Below are positions 24,386 to 33,194 of a stretch of DNA of 64,000 bases, piece by piece. Each line of letters begins with the position of its first letter. The stretch's first letter is position 1. The notes beneath the pieces are model-generated. The model did no database searches, was not told the origin of the DNA, and saw only the letters and a program-made list of their open reading frames with translations. This DNA comes from an uncultured Gammaproteobacteria bacterium (GTDB lineage Bacteria; Patescibacteriota; Microgenomatia; Daviesbacterales; UBA10151): NCBI GenBank assembly GCA_964523905.1, contig CAZFYQ010000003.1, positions 28,976 through 92,975 of the forward strand. The letters run 5' to 3'. Made by a program: the position numbers and the translations under genes.

Positions 24386-25569
24386 TGGAGACTTTAAAAT
24401 TGGCAATGGTGGCAATTTGGGCTAATAAATTACGTTCCAGTTTAACAGTTCTGGGAATTGTCATCGGGGTCATGTCAGTGATTTTATTAATCTCTTTGGT
24501 CACCGGTTTGCAAACCTTTATTACTGGACAAATACAGGGATTGGGATCAAATTTATTATTTGTAATTCCCGGCAGAGTGGGCGGAGCCAGGTCACCAGGC
24601 GGAGTACAGGCTAATAAGCTGGTTTATTCTGATGCCAATACTTTGGCTGCTAGATTAACCGGGCAGGCCGTTGTATCTGCAGCTATTCAACGAACTACTA
24701 CTTTAAAATATAGTAATAAAAATGACAAAAACACCGCGGTTTTTGGAGTTGATGCAACTTATCCTAAAGTTATCAGCTCCTTAAAATTAACAGAAGGCCG
24801 ATTTTTTAAAGAATCGGATGCGGTTTCCGCCAGAAGAGTAGCAGTAATTGGTCAAACAGTTAAAACCAATTTATTTGGCACTTCCTCAACTGTTGGCAAA
24901 GTAATTGATGTGGGAGGAGTTAAATACACTGTCATCGGGGTGTTAGATAAACGGGGCTCTTTATTTGGAATTGATCAGGATAATTCAATTTACTCCCCTT
25001 TTCTGGCAATTCAAAGGCAATTTGGTTTAAATAATCTAAATACTATATATATTTCGGCTAATGATTCCGCTAATGTCAAAACCGTACAGAAAAAAGCCAC
25101 CAACATCTTGTTAAAACGTTTGTCTGAAGATGATTTTACAGTGCAGTCTCAGGAACAAGCCTTATCAACTATTTCTCAAATTACCGGGGTCTTAACAGCT
25201 GCTTTGGGAGGCATAGCAGCTATTTCTCTTCTGGTTGGTGGAATTGGCATCATGAATATCATGCTAGTATCTGTCACAGAAAGAACCAGAGAAATTGGCC
25301 TGCGCAAAGCCATTGGTGCCACCCCGGGCAATATCCGTAATCAATTTTTAATTGAGGCTTTAACCTTGTCTGGCTTTGGAGGGATCTTAGGAATTGCCAT
25401 TGGATTTGGAATATCTCTTATTATTGGGATCTTCTTTACCACCACAGTACCGCTATGGTCAGTGGCTTTATCATTTGGATTCTCAATGTTAGTGGGAGTG
25501 ATCTTTGGCGTAGCGCCGGCTATTCGAGCATCCAGATTGGATCCAATTACAGCTCTTCGTTATGAATAA
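24385..25569 (+). CDS. ABC transporter permease, FtsX/MacB family
   Basis: N-terminal TM, a large periplasmic domain, and a C-terminal 3-TM FtsX bundle. It is translationally coupled to the ATPase gene (ATGA overlap). Confidence 0.85.
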   Translation: METLKLAMVAIWANKLRSSLTVLGIVIGVMSVILLISLVTGLQTFITGQIQGLGSNLLFVIPGRVGGARSPGGVQANKLVYSDANTLAARLTGQAVVSAAIQRTTTLKYSNKNDKNTAVFGVDATYPKVISSLKLTEGRFFKESDAVSARRVAVIGQTVKTNLFGTSSTVGKVIDVGGVKYTVIGVLDKRGSLFGIDQDNSIYSPFLAIQRQFGLNNLNTIYISANDSANVKTVQKKATNILLKRLSEDDFTVQSQEQALSTISQITGVLTAALGGIAAISLLVGGIGIMNIMLVSVTERTREIGLRKAIGATPGNIRNQFLIEALTLSGFGGILGIAIGFGISLIIGIFFTTTVPLWSVALSFGFSMLVGVIFGVAPAIRASRLDPITALRYE

Positions 25570-25578
25570 TTTACGTTT

Positions 25579-25593
25579 ACACCTGAGAGGTGT
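25579..25593. repeat. Solo REP-like hairpin ACACCT-gag-AGGTGT between convergent genes
   Basis: Same arms as the hairpins flanking transposase copy 1. Confidence 0.5.
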
Positions 25594-25597
25594 CAGG

Positions 25598-26233
25598 CTA
25601 AATAAATTGGAATACTCCGCCTAAATTGTTTAATACTTTATCTGCCTGGCTAAAATCCCCGTCCATAGTTTCTTTACCAGGTATAGCAAATACAGTCATA
25701 CCTGCTGCTACAGCTGCTGCCACCCCAATCGGTGAATCTTCCAGCACTAAACAATCATTGGGGTCCACGCTGATTGCTTTAGCAGTTAGTAAATAGACAT
25801 CTGGAGCGGGTTTTCCTCTCTTAACATTTTCTGCAGAATACAACGCATCAAAAAAATCGCCAACCTCTAAGGCCTTGACAATAATATTAATAGTGGCAAT
25901 CTGAGAACTGGAAGCAATGGCCATTTTGATACCTACTCGCCTTAAATCATTTAATAGATCCATTAAACCAGGACGAGGGAGAATTTTATCTAGAAGTTGT
26001 CTGGTAATAACTTGCTTTTGATCAAATAATTCCTCAGCAGTTATGGGTAGCTGGTAACGGGTGACCATGTCTACAGCGCAATCCATGTCTGTTTTACCAA
26101 GATACAACTTTATGTTATCTTCTTCAGTGAATTGTTTGCCGTATTTTTGAAACACCTGATCAAAAGCCTGCTGATGAATTGGCTCGGAATCCACCATTAG
26201 TCCATCCATATCAAAAATCACTGCTTTAAACAT
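25598..26233 (-). CDS. HAD-superfamily hydrolase (beta-phosphoglucomutase-like phosphatase)
   Basis: Motif I VIFDMDGLMVDSEP, motif IV GKPAPD...LEDSPIG. Start set at MFKAVIFD; the track ORF extends to 26311. Confidence 0.75.
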   Translation of the reverse strand: MFKAVIFDMDGLMVDSEPIHQQAFDQVFQKYGKQFTEEDNIKLYLGKTDMDCAVDMVTRYQLPITAEELFDQKQVITRQLLDKILPRPGLMDLLNDLRRVGIKMAIASSSQIATINIIVKALEVGDFFDALYSAENVKRGKPAPDVYLLTAKAISVDPNDCLVLEDSPIGVAAAVAAGMTVFAIPGKETMDGDFSQADKVLNNLGGVFQFI

Positions 26234-26236
26234 TGT

Positions 26237-27280
26237 TTGATTATACCAAAGGTATATAATAAGAGTATGAATTTGTCTCATACTGAACAGGAAATGCTGG
26301 AAGCTAAGCAAGTTTGTCTAAACTTCGACTTCGCTATTACTAAAGATATTGCAGAAAAAATTGGCCAATCTAATATTATCTTCGCCGGAATGGGTAGTAG
26401 CTTAATTTTTCCCGGAAAACAAGCCAAAAATCGGGCCTTAAAACTAGGCATCAGTAATAAGGTTGAAGCGTTCTTTGCCTCAGATTTATTTCAATACGAA
26501 GATTTTTCTAACACCTACGTATTTTTATGTAGTAATTCTGGTAAAACCAAAGAAGTAATTCTTTTATTGGATTATGCACAAAAACATGGAGCTAAATGTA
26601 TTGCTGTCACTGCTGTAGCTGATTCTATCCTGGCTCAAAGAGCAGATGAAAAGATTATTCTAACCTGTGGTTTTGAACAAGGCGTAGCCGCAACTAAATC
26701 CGTGATTGAACAGGGATTGGTATATGATTCACTAATCTTTCACTTGGCGAAAAACCAAGGCAAAGATGTTGACTTTGATTTTCTAAAACAAGAACTGGAT
26801 AAAACTGCTGAGATCTTAGAAAGCAATGTTAATGCTAAATTGGATGCGAAACTACTTGAGCAGTTAGTTAAAGAAAATCTATACTATGTAGCTGGTTTGG
26901 ATAATGGTGTTGCTGAGGAAATTGCTCTAAAGTCTTATGAAATAGCACGTAAAATGGCCATATTCTTTGCCGACACCCACACGGTGCATGGACCGGAGGA
27001 AGGTATTGATAATGGCTGCGTAATACTTATAGAACCCAACTATTTCAAGGAGTATTTGTCAGATTTTCAAAAATTCGTTGATAAAACCAAAACTACTTTA
27101 ATTGGAGTCGACCAGGATTTATTAATTCCCGGCTTGGAAATTCAAATTAATGATACTTTCCGTAATTATTGCCTGTTAGCTGGTGGTTGGGCCTTGCTTA
27201 GAAACATCGGCGTAGAAATGGGCATTGATATTGATCATCCAGTCAAAGCTTCCAAAGTCGGCAATCCTTTTGAGGGATAA
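26237..27280 (+). CDS. SIS-domain sugar-phosphate isomerase/binding protein
   Basis: Two SIS-like halves; GMGSS and SNSGKT motifs. Confidence 0.6.
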   Translation: MIIPKVYNKSMNLSHTEQEMLEAKQVCLNFDFAITKDIAEKIGQSNIIFAGMGSSLIFPGKQAKNRALKLGISNKVEAFFASDLFQYEDFSNTYVFLCSNSGKTKEVILLLDYAQKHGAKCIAVTAVADSILAQRADEKIILTCGFEQGVAATKSVIEQGLVYDSLIFHLAKNQGKDVDFDFLKQELDKTAEILESNVNAKLDAKLLEQLVKENLYYVAGLDNGVAEEIALKSYEIARKMAIFFADTHTVHGPEEGIDNGCVILIEPNYFKEYLSDFQKFVDKTKTTLIGVDQDLLIPGLEIQINDTFRNYCLLAGGWALLRNIGVEMGIDIDHPVKASKVGNPFEG

Positions 27281-27330
27281 TTTTAGGAACTAATCTTGAT
27301 CCTATAGTTAAAATAAGCTATACTATAGAG

Positions 27331-29058
27331 ATGACAGAAACACAGTCTGAAGCAGTCGGTTATCCATATGCATTCAGCTTAAATGGTAGGATGCTTCCAA
27401 TTAAACCTGATTTACAAGCTCACCTTGGTCAAACAAGGGACAAGATAGAATCCGCATTTAGAAAGACTCTTTCCAGCCAAGAACTGGAGGTAATTGAAAA
27501 AATAGAGGCGGGCTTACCTTCTGATGCTCCTCCAGCGATGACTGCCATGGATTATCTTTTTCTTCGCCATAATTTGGGAACATCCTTAAACGTTATCGGG
27601 AGGGATTTAGGTATTGCAGGTAATACTCTGGGTAGAATGTTTGATAGGTTAGGACTACCCAGAATAAGCAAGACCGATGCCACTAAAATATCTAAGAGAC
27701 CGCCACAGATCGACATTGAAGCAATGGTTCAATTAATGAGTGAGCAGATAAGACTACATAGGGAAGATCCAAGCTACGAACTATCCACAAATGCCCAGTT
27801 AGGAGATATTCTTGGCTCCCATAAGTCATTAATTGGTAAATTAGCGGCTGAGTTTTTTACTCCGGAGGATCGGAAATACAGAGAGCAATCAATAAAAAGG
27901 CAGAGATTTGCAATTAGTGCAAAGAGAAATCGCGAAACGGGGAAACGTCGAGTTAGCCACATAAATCCTTTAACAGGGAATACATACGCCCACGATGCCG
28001 GGGTTATAAACGGCAAAAGATCTTATGAATTGGGCACCGGCGTTCACGCATTAACCCGTGAGCAGAGAGAAAAATACGGCAGAATTGGGGGAATCATTAC
28101 AGCTGAAGCGGGAATGGGAGTTCATGCTTTAACTCATGAGCAGCATATGGCAGCAGGACATAAGGGCGGTTCAAAGTCACGAGATAATCAATCAGGCATG
28201 TTCACTTTATCCCCGGAAAGAAAAGCGGCAATTGGATTAGCCCAGGCGATGCGTAGCATGGAAGAAGGAACAGGTATTTTTGGTTTATCTGATGAAGAAA
28301 AGAAAAAATATGCTCAGATGGGCGGCAGGACTGTTAGAGATATGGGCAAGGGGGTCTTTGGGGTCGATCCTGAGACGAATGTTCCCTACAGACTTATTGG
28401 GGGCCGTAACGCCTATCTCCAAGGTGCAGGTATTCATGGTTTGTCAATTGAACGCAGGAGAGCTATAGGAGTTGCTGCATCAGAGGTACCTAATAGTAAT
28501 AAAACCTATACGGAAACAGAGTATTTTGATTCCGTGATGGAAGCAGCTACTGCTGTACTTTTAGAGCGGTACATACCAGGCTTTCATATTGAGCGTGGTG
28601 AAACATACCAAATCAGCACTGGTATTTTAAAGAAAATAGACTTTTTAATAAACCAAGTTTTTGTCGAATTTAACCCAATTCTGTTAACTTATACAGAGGG
28701 CTCATTAGGTGCTTTTGAAACAGAGAATGAGTTTATAGAATATCAAGAGGAATTAGGTAGGCTTTCTCCAATGGAGCGAAAGCGCTACAAAAATGCCACT
28801 AGAGAAATACTTAAAGGTAGGTATTTTCAAAGAAGACGAGAGGCATTGGATGAAAATCCTGATTACAGAAAGTCTGAGCTGGTTGTTGTCACTGACCCAA
28901 TAGAACTTTATGATCAGGTTATCCAAAGGTTTGGTGCAGAAATTCCCACGCTTCAACAATTTTTAAAGGAATTTGAGGTTTTGCGAGTTGTGATTAAAGA
29001 CCAATCAGAAAAAATTAAAAACCAAAAAGATTCATCTACTTCTCCAACTGTTCTTTAA
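27331..29058 (+). CDS. Large hypothetical protein with HTH-like N-terminus and six ~30-aa Gly-bracketed repeats
   Basis: Repeats: GVHALTREQREKYGRIGG, GVHALTHEQHMAAGHKGG, GMFTLSPERKAAIGLAQA, GIFGLSDEEKKKYAQMGG, GVFGVDPETNVPYRLIGG, GIHGLSIERRRAIGVAAS. The TATACT -10 ends 6 nt before the ATG (leaderless-type). Confidence 0.5.
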   Translation: MTETQSEAVGYPYAFSLNGRMLPIKPDLQAHLGQTRDKIESAFRKTLSSQELEVIEKIEAGLPSDAPPAMTAMDYLFLRHNLGTSLNVIGRDLGIAGNTLGRMFDRLGLPRISKTDATKISKRPPQIDIEAMVQLMSEQIRLHREDPSYELSTNAQLGDILGSHKSLIGKLAAEFFTPEDRKYREQSIKRQRFAISAKRNRETGKRRVSHINPLTGNTYAHDAGVINGKRSYELGTGVHALTREQREKYGRIGGIITAEAGMGVHALTHEQHMAAGHKGGSKSRDNQSGMFTLSPERKAAIGLAQAMRSMEEGTGIFGLSDEEKKKYAQMGGRTVRDMGKGVFGVDPETNVPYRLIGGRNAYLQGAGIHGLSIERRRAIGVAASEVPNSNKTYTETEYFDSVMEAATAVLLERYIPGFHIERGETYQISTGILKKIDFLINQVFVEFNPILLTYTEGSLGAFETENEFIEYQEELGRLSPMERKRYKNATREILKGRYFQRRREALDENPDYRKSELVVVTDPIELYDQVIQRFGAEIPTLQQFLKEFEVLRVVIKDQSEKIKNQKDSSTSPTVL

Positions 29059-30049
29059 AATAATCTACCCACGGGATTAAACTGGGGTCTTGGCCATAGA
29101 GCATGGCTAACTCATAAGTTAAGTAACCTCCGAAAGACAAGACATTTAAGACTTGGGATAATTTAGAAGAACCAGATGGCTTATATTCATCAAACTCGAC
29201 ATTATTTTTACCAACCACATCTTTAGTTAGTTCCACCCGTTTTTTTAATTTATCAGAATATAAATCAGAGTTTAAAAATAAAATGAAAAGTTTCTTACCG
29301 GCAGGGTTTTTCAAACCTTCCATTAGATGATGGTTCAGCTCAGACAGCTCAGAGAATGCAGAGAAACTTTTGGCTGTTTCATTAGTTTGGTTTCTGACAA
29401 TGTGAGCATTGCCGTTTAGAAATTCGGCTGCAAAATAAACCGGAATTGACCCATTAATTTTGTCAGCCAGTCTTTTGGCTTGTTGCTTAATTACTTCTGA
29501 AGCCTTTTTTAGTTCTGAAATTGCGGTTGCGACTTCTTCATCACTAACTGATAAATAGCCCAGCCTATTCAGCAAGGCAATAGTTCCCAGGACCATATAA
29601 CCTGTTCCTAGTCTTGGTTGTCCAGAAGGGTTAAACTTTGGTTCAAACTTAAGCCCTGGTAAGTTTTGTCCCCCGCTAATTCCGGTTAACTGCAGATTTT
29701 TTTGCTGGGCCTCTTTAAGACAGGATAAAACTTCCTCAGTGGTGCCGGAATAACTGGATAGAATAGCTAAAGTTTCCTCACTGGCAAATCCTGGCAAGTG
29801 ATAGTCATTATTAGAATATAAAGGCACTTTTAATTCATCTTTATATAAAGCAGAGACAATGTAGCCACCATAAGCAGAACCACCCATGCCGCAAACTACA
29901 ATATCTTTAGCATTCTTTAATTCCTCAGGAAAATCTGTTTCTTTAGCCAGCTGCCAGATTTGTTCACATTGATCAGCAAACATTCCAGTGGAACCTAATA
30001 CATCTTTGGGATCAAGTGGATTCATCCTCCTTATATTAACATGTGACAA
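29036..30049 (-). CDS. Bifunctional phosphoglucose/phosphomannose isomerase (SIS, PGI/PMI family)
   Basis: IVVCGMGGSAYGG and SYSGTTEE motifs typical of the archaeal-type PGI/PMI family. Confidence 0.75.
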   Translation of the reverse strand: MSHVNIRRMNPLDPKDVLGSTGMFADQCEQIWQLAKETDFPEELKNAKDIVVCGMGGSAYGGYIVSALYKDELKVPLYSNNDYHLPGFASEETLAILSSYSGTTEEVLSCLKEAQQKNLQLTGISGGQNLPGLKFEPKFNPSGQPRLGTGYMVLGTIALLNRLGYLSVSDEEVATAISELKKASEVIKQQAKRLADKINGSIPVYFAAEFLNGNAHIVRNQTNETAKSFSAFSELSELNHHLMEGLKNPAGKKLFILFLNSDLYSDKLKKRVELTKDVVGKNNVEFDEYKPSGSSKLSQVLNVLSFGGYLTYELAMLYGQDPSLIPWVDYFKEQLEK

Positions 30050-30077: not shown

Positions 30078-31526
30078 ATGGATTCTTACGCTCTAATAAT
30101 CTTCGGCATTACCGGCAACTTAGCACAAATCAAATTAATCCCTGTTCTATATGACATGGCAGAGAAAGATTTACTGCCAGAGGGAATGATTATCCTTGGC
30201 ATTGCCAGAAAACCAATGACCAAAGAAGAATTTCAGGATTATTTTTATCAGACTCTAAAATCAGGTAACATTCATCACCAACATGAGATCAAAGATGAGG
30301 TATTTAAGAAGTTAAGTTCTAAAATTCATTATTTAGATGGTACGGTTGATGATCCTAATTTCTACCCTAGATTGAAAGATTATTTAGCAGACCTAAATAA
30401 AAAGGGCTATCACTGTGATAATCGAATTTATTATTTGGCAACTTATCCTGATCTCTATTCAAAAGTTTTTGAAGGCTTACAGAAAAGTGGCTTAAATAAA
30501 CAGGATGATGGTTGGGTACGTCTAATGATTGAAAAACCAATCGGACATGACTTGGAATCTGCAAAGGAGTTAAACCAACTATTACTAAAATACTTTACTG
30601 AGGATCAAATTTACAGATTGGATCATTACTTAGGCAAAGAAACCTTACAAAATATCCTCACCTTTAGATTTTCTAACGGCATTTTTGATCCGTTAATTAA
30701 TAAAGACTATATTGATCACATTCAAATCACAGCATCTGAGGACTTTGGTATTGGTAAACGCGGTGGTTATTATGACCAAACCGGTGCATTAAAAGATGTT
30801 GGTCAAAATCACCAGCTGCAAATGTTGGCTTTTGCCACCATGGATGCACCAGCTGAGTTTAGTAATGAAGCAGTAACCCGGGAACGCTTAAAAATTCTAC
30901 AAAGCTTAGTAGCAAAGCCAGAAGATGTGGTGTTTGGGCAATATGAGGATTATGATAAAGAGCCTAATGTTGATCCCAAATCAACCACTGATACTTACTA
31001 TGCTTTGAAAACTTATATTGATAACGAGCGGTTTAAAGGAGTGCCAATTTATATCCGTGCTGGCAAAAAATTAAACCAAACTGTGACTGAAATTAGCATT
31101 GTATTTAAAAACCCAATCAACCGGCTGTTAAAAAATGTTGCCGCAGGAGATAACCCTAATGTTTTAATTTATCGGATACAGCCTAATGAAGGCATTGTTT
31201 TAAAAATTCTGACTAAGGTTCCCGGCCATGAAATTAAATTAGAACCAGAGTATATGCAATTTTGCTACAAACTGGACCCTCATCAGCACTATATTCCTGA
31301 TCCTTATGAACGATTATTAGTTGATACTATGCAAGGAGACCAAACCTTTTTTAACGATGCCGAGGAAGTGGAAGCTCAGTGGGCTTTTATTGATAAACTA
31401 GTCGCTAAAAGAGGCAAACCAACTATATATAAGGCCGGATCATGGGGTCCTAAAGAGGCTGATGAATTACTAGAAAAAGATGGTCGAAGCTGGCTGGAAC
31501 CTTCCATGGATTTCTGTCGTATATGA
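30078..31526 (+). CDS. zwf: Glucose-6-phosphate 1-dehydrogenase
   Basis: NAD(P) motif IIFGITGNLAQIKL, active site RLDHYLGKE, and a C-terminal G6PD domain. Confidence 0.9.
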   Translation: MDSYALIIFGITGNLAQIKLIPVLYDMAEKDLLPEGMIILGIARKPMTKEEFQDYFYQTLKSGNIHHQHEIKDEVFKKLSSKIHYLDGTVDDPNFYPRLKDYLADLNKKGYHCDNRIYYLATYPDLYSKVFEGLQKSGLNKQDDGWVRLMIEKPIGHDLESAKELNQLLLKYFTEDQIYRLDHYLGKETLQNILTFRFSNGIFDPLINKDYIDHIQITASEDFGIGKRGGYYDQTGALKDVGQNHQLQMLAFATMDAPAEFSNEAVTRERLKILQSLVAKPEDVVFGQYEDYDKEPNVDPKSTTDTYYALKTYIDNERFKGVPIYIRAGKKLNQTVTEISIVFKNPINRLLKNVAAGDNPNVLIYRIQPNEGIVLKILTKVPGHEIKLEPEYMQFCYKLDPHQHYIPDPYERLLVDTMQGDQTFFNDAEEVEAQWAFIDKLVAKRGKPTIYKAGSWGPKEADELLEKDGRSWLEPSMDFCRI

Positions 31527-32239
31527 AAATAACTTTTCTGGGCACTAATGGCTGGTATACTACTCCTACAGGTAACACACCGAGTGTTTTAATCGATGCT
31601 AAGGAAGGCTATGTTGTCTTTGATGCCGGTAATGGAATTTATAAACTGGCTGATTATATTAAAGAAGATAAGCCAGTTAGTCTATTTATCTCCCATTTTC
31701 ATCTGGATCATGTTTCAGGATTACATTCCAGTGTAATGAATGTCAATATGAATGTGTATATGGGACCGAATCGAAAAAAAGACTATGACATTTTAATGAA
31801 TCCTCCATTTAGCAACCCCAAACCATGGCAGGTAAAAGAGTTAAACTTAGGGATTAATGATGTGGGTTTTCCTGTTGAGGTGTTTGAAATGCATCATGCC
31901 TATACTGACCACGGTTTTCGAGTGACTTTGGAAGGTAAAACTATTTCCTACTCCGGAGACACCGGAATTTGTGATAATTCTATTCCTTTAGCCAAAGACT
32001 GCGATCTACTTATCCATGAATGCTCCGGCTTAGATAAAGGCGATCCCGAGTGGGGTCATGTAAATGCGACAGAAGCTGCTCAGTTGGCTAAAGATACTAA
32101 TGTTAAAAAGCTAGTACTTAACCATTTTGATGCTTCTGTATATACAGACTTAGAGAAAAGAAAGATTGCTGAAAACATGGCCCAGGAAATTTTCCCTGAA
32201 TCTCAAATAGCCACTGATAACCTAACAATTACTCTGTAA
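31523..32239 (+). CDS. MBL-fold metallo-hydrolase (candidate lactonase)
   Basis: HFHLDH (HxHxDH) metal motif. Start overlaps the zwf stop (ATGA). Confidence 0.75.
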   Translation: MKITFLGTNGWYTTPTGNTPSVLIDAKEGYVVFDAGNGIYKLADYIKEDKPVSLFISHFHLDHVSGLHSSVMNVNMNVYMGPNRKKDYDILMNPPFSNPKPWQVKELNLGINDVGFPVEVFEMHHAYTDHGFRVTLEGKTISYSGDTGICDNSIPLAKDCDLLIHECSGLDKGDPEWGHVNATEAAQLAKDTNVKKLVLNHFDASVYTDLEKRKIAENMAQEIFPESQIATDNLTITL

Positions 32240-33194
32240 TCTTTTTAACCGGGTGCCTACCAAATTGCCACCTCATAGCAGCTACTACCTTATTTCTAAA
32301 ACCAGCTGGAGAATCTTCTTTGTCCTGATCAGAAGCCCGTCTAACTGCCAATGAGGCCTCTATCACTGGTACCGGTACTTTTTTATCATGGGCAATTTCA
32401 ATGGTCCAGTCTGCTTCTGCTTTGGTTTTACCAGCTCCCCCACCGGAACCAATAACAGAAGAAATGGTTTTTAGCTCTGGGTCTTCCTGAAGTTCTTTTA
32501 ATGTCCAATCCACCAAACGTGAATCAACTATTGATTCATTATTATAAACTCTAAACACCTCTTTTAGGTCTAATTTAAAGTCAGAGTACTTCAATATTGC
32601 CGCACCTTCGGCAATTGCTTCCATCATGCCATATTCAATTCCGTTATGTACCATTTTGACAAAATGTCCGGCACCTAAATTACCCATCCATCCATAAGCT
32701 TTCGGCGCAGCAACTGCTTTAAAAAAAGGTTCGGCCATACCATAAGCTTCTTTCGGACCACCAATCATTAAGCAGGCTCCGGTTCTGGCTCCTTCTACCC
32801 CGCCTGAGGTGCCAACATCCATAAAATGGATTCCTTTTTCAGCTAATTGTTGGCCGCGTTTAATACTATCCTGGTAAAAAGAGTTACCTCCATCAATGAT
32901 AATGTCACCTTTAGATAGTTTAGGGATTAAATCAGTAAGTACCGCATCAACTGCCTCTGCTGAAACCATTAGCCAAATAATTCTGGGAGTATCTAGCTTT
33001 TCTATTAATTGATCAGTGGTTTCTGTAATTATTAAGTTCTCTGAACCATTTGATAAAACATCGGCCTCTTCTCTTAATTCTTCCCTGGGTTTTTCTGATC
33101 TGTTCCAGGCAATTACTTCAATATTGTGTTCCAGCAAATTAAGCGCAATATTTTTGCCCATCCGTCCCAAGCCAATAAAACCAATCTGTTGCAT
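32229..33194 (-). CDS. gnd: 6-phosphogluconate dehydrogenase, decarboxylating (short YqeC/Gnd-like form)
   Basis: IGFIGLGRMGKNIALNL Rossmann motif and the GHFVKMVHNGIEYG 6PGDH signature. Confidence 0.85.
   Translation of the reverse strand: MQQIGFIGLGRMGKNIALNLLEHNIEVIAWNRSEKPREELREEADVLSNGSENLIITETTDQLIEKLDTPRIIWLMVSAEAVDAVLTDLIPKLSKGDIIIDGGNSFYQDSIKRGQQLAEKGIHFMDVGTSGGVEGARTGACLMIGGPKEAYGMAEPFFKAVAAPKAYGWMGNLGAGHFVKMVHNGIEYGMMEAIAEGAAILKYSDFKLDLKEVFRVYNNESIVDSRLVDWTLKELQEDPELKTISSVIGSGGGAGKTKAEADWTIEIAHDKKVPVPVIEASLAVRRASDQDKEDSPAGFRNKVVAAMRWQFGRHPVKKITE

Follow-up and report, generated by a model that had tools for sequence, protein, structure and literature searches.

We analysed a 64,000-nucleotide (nt) stretch of DNA, hereafter the window (positions 28,976 to 92,975 of contig CAZFYQ010000003.1, assembly GCA_964523905.1), from an uncultured bacterium assigned to Daviesbacterales (Patescibacteriota), and examined an open reading frame (ORF) in it that may encode a site-specific modular DNA nuclease of an undescribed family. 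This target ORF lies at 27331-29058 on the plus strand and is free-standing and intergenic, placed between a SIS gene and a PGI gene. It starts 50 nt downstream of the SIS gene on the same strand, and its 3' end overlaps that of the convergent PGI gene by 23 nt, as the initial annotation of this DNA had reported; the neighbours named there (HAD, SIS, bact-PGI_C, G6PD, 6PGD and ROK) were recovered as well. The ORF of 575 amino acids (aa) described earlier is intact, and its length is nearly matched by the homologues P0004 (573 aa) and P0005 (574 aa). An identical protein is recorded in an NCBI assembly, where it lies on a 114-kb contig, and in a Logan assembly of SRR9179560. Its features are as follows.

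27331..29058, plus strand: whole target ORF, 575 aa plus stop
27331..27543, plus strand: N-terminal part, aa 1-71, with a low-confidence model and common to the closest homologues only
27544..27651, plus strand: helix-turn-helix (HTH) 1, aa 72-107, AMDYLFLRHNLGTSLNVIGRDLGIAGNTLGRMFDRL, three predicted helices
27706..27939, plus strand: family-wide module, aa 126-203, comprising a helix, HTH 2 (LSTNAQLGDILGSHKSLIGKL) and a long basic helix with a YR motif (alignment A3)
27949..28026, plus strand: possible degenerate seventh repeat, aa 207-232, RVSHINPLTGNTYAHDAGVINGKRSY
28027..28494, plus strand: six tandem 26-aa repeats, aa 233-388, supported by autocorrelation, a repeat profile and predicted helices
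28027, 28105, 28183, 28261, 28339 and 28417, plus strand: repeat unit boundaries
28513..29010, plus strand: predicted PD-(D/E)xK-fold (restriction-endonuclease-like) domain, aa 395-560
28540..28542, plus strand: E404 in helix alpha-1, forming an S-x-x-E motif with S401
28639..28641, plus strand: D437 at the start of strand beta-2, in the DF motif D437-F438
28666..28674, plus strand: E446-F-N448 in strand beta-3, the counterpart of (D/E)xK; family consensus E-[YWF]-H-P
28822..28836, plus strand: Y498-x-x-x-R502 in the long helix past the beta-sheet
29036..29058, plus strand: C-terminal tail codons plus stop, across the final codons and stop of PGI; this tail is unconserved in the family

The middle of the protein is a tandem array. 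The initial annotation had described six repeats of about 30 aa; the number six holds, but the period is exactly 26 aa, with G[VIM][HF] anchors at aa 237, 263, 289, 315, 341 and 367. BLOSUM autocorrelation was 0.70 at lag 26 against -0.83 ± 0.17 in 2000 shuffles, the maximum of any shuffle at any lag being at most 0.07, and further peaks were found at lags 52 and 78. The repeat expression proposed earlier matches copy 1 in full, whereas copies 2-6 fit only its short core, G[VIM][HF]x[LV][ST/D]xE, which is present in all six. Pairwise identity among the copies is only 4-13 of 26 residues and no tandem repeat was detected in the target at the DNA level, indicating that the array is old. Each unit consists of a Gly-rich loop of about nine residues, E-x-G-x-G-[VIM]-[HF]-x-L, and one helix that starts from an [ST]-x-E capping box. 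The helices are predicted at aa 243-259, 269-285, 295-312, 321-338, 353-363 and 373-384 (11-18 residues, about 17 being typical) with block-mean predicted local distance difference test (pLDDT) values of 86-95. The segment at aa 207-232 is in register at -26 aa, although the repeat hidden Markov model (HMM) finds no repeat there. When iterated, this HMM detected 1-9 copies in 45 of 164 collected family proteins, with a modal spacing of 26 aa and the family consensus ELGTGIHGLTPEQRSEIGKKGGK.

Upstream of the array, the model of aa 1-400 (pLDDT 83.8, the first 23 residues being unreliable at pLDDT <50) contains two three-helix units. The HTH-like segment flagged in the initial annotation (aa 73-104) is plausible, since it falls on predicted helices at aa 72-81, 86-93 and 97-107 and the aligned homologues match HTH families of Pfam. 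HTH 1 aligns with weak HTH_31 and HTH_38 matches of P0004 (aa 76-108), and its motif is kept in P0149 and P0012. The second unit belongs to a module with predicted helices at aa 126-145, 154-161, 165-175 and 178-203 (block-mean pLDDT 86-98), whose pattern ED..AL..LV.EEI..H..G....LSTN.ELA...G.S..TI.RYL......YR is conserved in many family members. P0004 has weak HTH_23 and HTH_24 matches at the aligned aa 150-172, and homologues match Pfam HTH_24, HTH_11, HTH_28, HTH_23, GntR and others, the best E-values ranging from 5e-7 to 2e-3.

The earlier idea of a DNA-binding or nuclease function is made more concrete by the C-terminal 170 aa, a part overlooked in the initial annotation, which appears to adopt a PD-(D/E)xK-like fold with its acidic triad intact. 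An AlphaFold model of aa 390-575 built from a 60-sequence alignment (mean pLDDT 93.8, predicted template modelling score 0.87) shows, in order, a helix, three strands, a helical hairpin, a strand and two helices, which contains the alpha-beta-beta-beta-alpha-beta core of the PD-(D/E)xK fold. Structural similarity scores are modest; the best Foldseek match is the homing endonuclease I-Bth0305I, at a non-significant level, and sequence profiles found no relative of the domain in the PDB. Conservation was counted over 158 family domains, of which 151-157 are ungapped at a given position. E404 is present in all 151 ungapped domains, D437 and E446 in all 157, Y498 in all 156 and R502 in 155 of 156, while S401 and F438 are invariant or nearly so. 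The conservation of these residues in the family fits a catalytic site. At position 448, 144 of 157 domains have H, 11 have N and two have Q. Every N or Q, that of the target included, is found in its own closest subclade, the whole of which shares the H448N change, so this substitution is a trait of the clade rather than decay. In DUF559/Vsr-like proteins, D-F is presumably followed 8-9 residues on by E-x-D, which is the spacing seen in the target, and on that ground the domain would belong to this branch of the superfamily. It differs from the DUF559/NGO0050-like, RAP and R2 RLE domains in having no Pfam match to any of them, in the residue at the third position, and in an extra helical hairpin with the invariant Y...R plus a C-terminal helix.

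The target had no match at E≤10 in Pfam, PHROGs or NCBIfam, nor did its repeats in Pfam, and at E≤0.1 PADLOC matched neither the target nor any of three homologues, in line with the earlier expectation that no known full-length family would be assigned. A word-indexed search yielded only two partial homologues and a profile re-search of the same index 16 proteins, none of them named, so that exhaustive phmmer was needed to reveal the family. Against 1.84 billion cluster representatives, phmmer uncovered a rare family, with 549 proteins reaching E≤1e-3 and 22 reaching E≤1e-30. Full-length matches are limited to P0004 (43% identity) and P0005, and most of the others match just the approximately 160 C-terminal aa, within proteins of 160-800 aa. 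The family proteins carry no functional name in any source and no precomputed Pfam domain, and with no Pfam, NCBIfam or PHROG model available they are annotated as 'hypothetical protein'. The clusters of the repeat-bearing proteins P0001, P0164, P0004, P0005, P0012, P0014 and P0148 are all singletons, and a metagenome scan gave one locus. We found no description of the nuclease family or of the 26-aa repeat in the literature. Modular nucleases with a restriction-enzyme fold are a kind already known; judged by sequence comparison, the putative nuclease subfamily defined by S-x-x-E, D-F, E-x-[HNQ]-P and Y-x-x-x-R and the 26-aa repeat lie outside all libraries searched.

The repeat is re-used in several domain arrangements. 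P0149 has the HTH 1 of the target (ISAIDYLFIRH...) and the repeats, with a C-terminal domain that is different or very divergent (hhalign probability 31%, 37 columns), and in P0148, too, the C-terminal domain joined to the repeats is different or divergent. In P0003, P0147 and gp294 of cyanophage B23, the repeats are joined to another N-terminal domain; this pairing is found in phage-like contigs as well as in B23. By eye, the N-terminus of P0003 and B23 gp294 (IY[IV]YKITF...YYYYG) could be read as GIY-YIG, but this reading was not confirmed, with zero Pfam matches and nothing relevant from phmmer against the PDB. The B23 gene is placed in the interval bounded by the conserved genes gp46 and gp45, alongside two other hypothetical genes. 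Hypothetical proteins with about nine repeat copies occur in Synechococcus phage B23 (L035, 2524-3609) and also in phages B3 and S-SRM01. In these cyanophage proteins, the N-terminal domain (IYVYKITF...YYYYG...IENRLI...CLNE) is conserved and the C-terminus bears a KWxC..TG[FY]I motif; Pfam has no match for them.

The genomic contexts of the homologues are unrelated and rich in mobile elements. The closest homologue, P0004, adjoins a ComF-like gene in an unrelated context. A homologue in L036 with 46% identity has HicAB and a large serine recombinase as its flanking genes; close to P0164 are an integrase gene, a TrwB-like gene and a small gene of the GIY-YIG type. P0148 (L034, 4640-5932) has PIN-MazE as its neighbour in a pur operon and overlaps convergent purQ at its 3' end, an end-on-end geometry like that of the target and PGI. 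The contig of P0014 carries the archaeal markers ribosomal protein L15e and TrmB. In two 'Deltaproteobacteria' contigs, the genes downstream of short, 216-aa family members are the same.

For comparison of the locus itself, relatives were taken as 17 genomes with a zwf 63-78% identical to that of the window, most of them Candidatus Daviesbacteria, Microgenomates or Patescibacteria. The backbone of the locus is HlyD-ABC-FtsX-[PGI]-zwf-[variable]-gnd-ROK. No target homologue was found within 10 kb in any of these 17 syntenic relatives; the gene is therefore not conserved at this position, in agreement with the initial annotation, and its distribution is sporadic. The HAD and SIS genes are likewise missing at the locus in all 17. 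The stops of FtsX and PGI are separated by 18-49 nt in L016, L022 and L025, with a short hairpin after FtsX in L022 and L025. Compared with these three, the window has an extra 3.47 kb:

25570..29035, unstranded: segment without counterpart in the relatives, from the FtsX stop with its hairpin to the PGI stop, carrying HAD (minus strand), SIS (plus strand) and the target (plus strand)

The coherent HAD-SIS...PGI block assumed in the initial annotation is thus not conserved, as the relatives lack HAD and SIS at this site, with FtsX directly abutting PGI in three of them, and a single gene breaking into a conserved HAD-SIS-PGI block is too simple a picture. Other genes occupy the same FtsX|PGI junction elsewhere, namely an AbiEii-type toxin gene (PF08843; 8106-8690, minus strand) in L013 and a sigma factor in L020; this variable slot seems to receive insertions repeatedly. 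The SIS gene is native to the lineage: it has many homologues of 66-78% identity located elsewhere in genomes, for example in thyA-SIS-folA of Daviesbacteria RIFCSPLOWO2_01_FULL_38_10. The possibility that SIS and the target travel together was rejected, as SIS homologues with 74-78% identity elsewhere have no adjoining target homologue (two contigs examined).

Taken together, the combination of HTH motifs, repeats and nuclease-like domain, the patchy distribution and the mobile-element neighbours are best accounted for by a free-standing, selfish, site-specific modular nuclease resembling homing endonucleases, a reading that we hold with about as much doubt as conviction. Sporadic presence at a conserved site, as seen in homing endonucleases, is also observed here, with FtsX and PGI adjacent in three of the relatives lacking the gene, although HAD and SIS are absent there too. 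In such a scheme, the two N-terminal HTH motifs and the six-repeat helical array would bind an extended DNA site and place the C-terminal domain on the DNA, where the E404/D437/E446-x-N448 cluster would coordinate a divalent metal and cut. Genomes without the gene would be cleaved and then undergo recombinational repair, which would explain the patchy distribution. The analysis shows the domain layout, the fold, the conserved acidic triad, the re-use of the repeat in other proteins and the sporadic presence amid mobile elements; that the repeats bind DNA, that the protein cuts it and that the gene homes are inferences.

This layout has parallels in characterized enzymes. I-Bth0305I joins two NUMOD2/HTH motifs at its N-terminus to a Vsr-like nuclease at its C-terminus (PMC3239194; PDB 3r3p), and the target likewise has its HTH motifs in the N-terminal part and its nuclease-like domain at the C-terminus. 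However, no sequence relation to I-Bth0305I or other EDxHD/Vsr-like enzymes is detectable. The EDxHD motif is absent in the target family, which has D-F...E-[YWF]-[H/N/Q]-P, S-x-x-E and Y-x-x-x-R instead; the target is not in an intron or intein, and its six-unit 26-aa array and helical hairpin insertion are lacking in I-Bth0305I. NUMOD3 is a minor-groove-binding helix found in I-TevI, I-HmuI and I-BmoI (PMC3664794). Like NUMOD3, the target repeat is a short helical module repeated between nuclease and HTH parts and re-used with different nuclease domains, but it differs in its 26-aa unit, its helix of about 17 residues, its G-x-G-[IV]-[HF] loop, its GG motif and its fixed-period arrays of at most nine copies. 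Indeed, NUMOD3 (PF07460) had no match in the target (E≤10), in 40 + 10 homologues or in an artificial consensus array, and KGG (PF10685) remained below threshold in homologues, so the statement in the initial annotation that the repeats fit neither family cleanly stands. The target also resembles the seg and mob free-standing homing endonucleases of T4-like phages, being a stand-alone gene wedged among conserved genes, patchy in distribution and composed of nuclease and modular DNA-binding parts; its repeat-bearing relative in B23 is similarly placed between conserved genes, gp46 and gp45. In contrast to seg and mob, its host is a cellular bacterium of the candidate phyla radiation (CPR), its nuclease type is different, its HAD and SIS neighbours are lineage-specific at this site as well, and its homing is hypothetical.

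Several observations weigh against a homing-endonuclease-like role. The third catalytic position is N in the target, neither K nor H, and the nuclease assignment is computational throughout. The GC content at third codon positions and the codon usage of the gene are ordinary for the window (z 0.45) and give no compositional sign of recent transfer. Neither flanking repeats nor an intron, an intein or an identifiable target site was found around the gene; repeats bracketing the inserted segment were also not found, the region 25300-29400 containing just short imperfect two-copy matches of a chance-like kind. The gene is present in a single copy, with no second one in the window. As HAD and SIS are lineage-specific here, the insertion may exceed the endonuclease gene alone, and the shared neighbours of the 216-aa forms may reflect either close relatedness or a cellular role. 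The earlier proposal of an acquired gene is correspondingly upheld in part: its sporadic occurrence and its absence from all 17 relatives speak for it, whereas the codon usage bears no foreign sign and HAD and SIS are lineage-specific at this site too.

Some of these observations would suit a cellular, domesticated DNA-binding protein with the same parts and no selfish behaviour, such as a transcription or nucleoid regulator or a repair or recombination nuclease, which we consider rather unlikely. The native-like codon usage and the position 50 nt after SIS on the same strand speak for it, but the target is absent at the locus in all 17 relatives and is unlinked to SIS in the two other contigs examined. 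Downstream neighbours are conserved for the 216-aa members in the two 'Deltaproteobacteria' contigs; against this, all looked-up clusters of repeat-bearing proteins are singletons and the homologues lie in unrelated contexts rich in mobile elements. Folds of the PD-(D/E)xK, Vsr and RAP types also serve in repair and RNA binding, and the change of H448 to N or Q in the subclade might alter or lower catalysis, whereas the strict conservation of the acidic triad argues for catalysis.

A stand-alone defence or restriction-like nuclease, or an addiction-module toxin, that sits in a variable island slot and cuts invading DNA is improbable in our estimation. The restriction-endonuclease fold and the sporadic distribution would agree with it, as would the toxin-antitoxin and Abi genes nearby (AbiEii in the L013 junction, PIN-MazE by P0148 and HicAB in L036). 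Nevertheless, PADLOC models are blank, no methyltransferase, immunity or partner gene adjoins the target in the window, long modular DNA-binding arrays are typical of long-site homing enzymes rather than of defence nucleases, and the repeat is present in phage genomes themselves.

A bolder version of the DNA-binding idea is that the 26-aa units form a programmable DNA-recognition array, each unit reading a fixed DNA increment, so that the proteins would be natural TALEN-like nucleases of an unrecognised homing-endonuclease family; we regard this as a long shot. Specificity would then reside in the variable helix positions 4, 11, 15-17 and 23-26 of the unit, and the array would be fused to at least two, possibly three, different nuclease-type domains across CPR bacteria, DPANN-like archaea and cyanophages. 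The fixed period with 1-9 copies, the high-confidence model and a weak similarity to repeats of transcription activator-like (TAL) effectors are compatible with such an array but do not demonstrate it. The consensus ...GIHG-LTPEQRSEIGKKGGK... has a TAL-effector-repeat-like 'HG|LTPEQ...GGK' signature, and an artificial consensus array scored 21.9 bits against the TAL-effector family PF03377 (cut-off 28); this signature is probably a helix-capping coincidence.

That the repeats are KGG-type stress-protein (hydrophilin) repeats of a stress or desiccation protein rather than part of a DNA enzyme is very improbable, since the sub-threshold PF10685 matches of P0002 (17.0 bits), P0151 and P0015 and the 36 bits in total of an artificial 4x consensus array reflect a likeness of about 14 G/K-rich residues in the C-terminal half of the unit, whereas the target repeats have no Pfam match, neither the target nor any natural homologue reaches the gathering threshold (20.4 bits), and the repeats are predicted to be ordered helices, not disordered, and always stand between HTH and nuclease-like domains. 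The consensus does resemble positions 8-21 of the KGG profile (YciG/GsiB-type) in its C-terminal half (EQRSEIGKKGGK), but nothing in KGG corresponds to the N-terminal half (ELGTGIHGLT) of the unit. This weak likeness could cause phage repeat proteins to be misread as stress-response proteins.

If the homing-endonuclease-like reading is true, the target would represent a new lineage of modular site-specific nucleases that combine a PD-(D/E)xK fold bearing an unusual E-x-H/N/Q motif with a new tandem helical DNA-binding repeat. The hosts of the family are small-genome lineages (CPR bacteria and the contig with archaeal markers) and cyanophages. To our knowledge, there is little documentation in such lineages of selfish endonucleases located outside rRNA introns. 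Moreover, a repeat of fixed period and variable copy number that is joined to varied catalytic domains is the type of module that has been useful for engineering, as with zinc fingers and TALEs.

Several further features of the locus were noted. A promoter-like site precedes the target:

27296..27324, plus strand: TTGATC-17-TATACT, a consensus match only, ending 7 nt 5' of the ATG

As 12 such sites occur in the region against 14 expected by chance, this match is no evidence of function. The SIS gene is listed with a TTG start (26237-27280, plus strand), which makes its product 347 aa long and lets the gene overlap HAD (25598-26311, minus strand) by 75 nt; most of its homologues are 337 aa long, suggesting that the real start is probably an ATG about 10 codons downstream (MNLSHTEQ...).

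Upstream of zwf, L011 (9380-9991, minus strand) and L020 (7629-8249, minus strand) carry a cupin-type glucose-6-phosphate isomerase (PF06560) at the position that the SIS-type bact-PGI takes in the window and four relatives, an arrangement suggestive of non-orthologous displacement at a fixed locus. ORFs of similar size (about 200 aa) and the same orientation are present at the PGI position in L012, L015, L021, L026 and L027, the domain scan having covered L011 and L020. Between zwf (30078-31526) and gnd (32229-33194, minus strand), a metallo-beta-lactamase-fold gene (31523-32239, plus strand) overlaps the zwf stop by 4 nt and occupies the position expected for 6-phosphogluconolactonase. Among the 18 loci, it was found only in the window and L025, and its product may be a non-orthologous lactonase serving the oxidative branch of the pentose-phosphate pathway.

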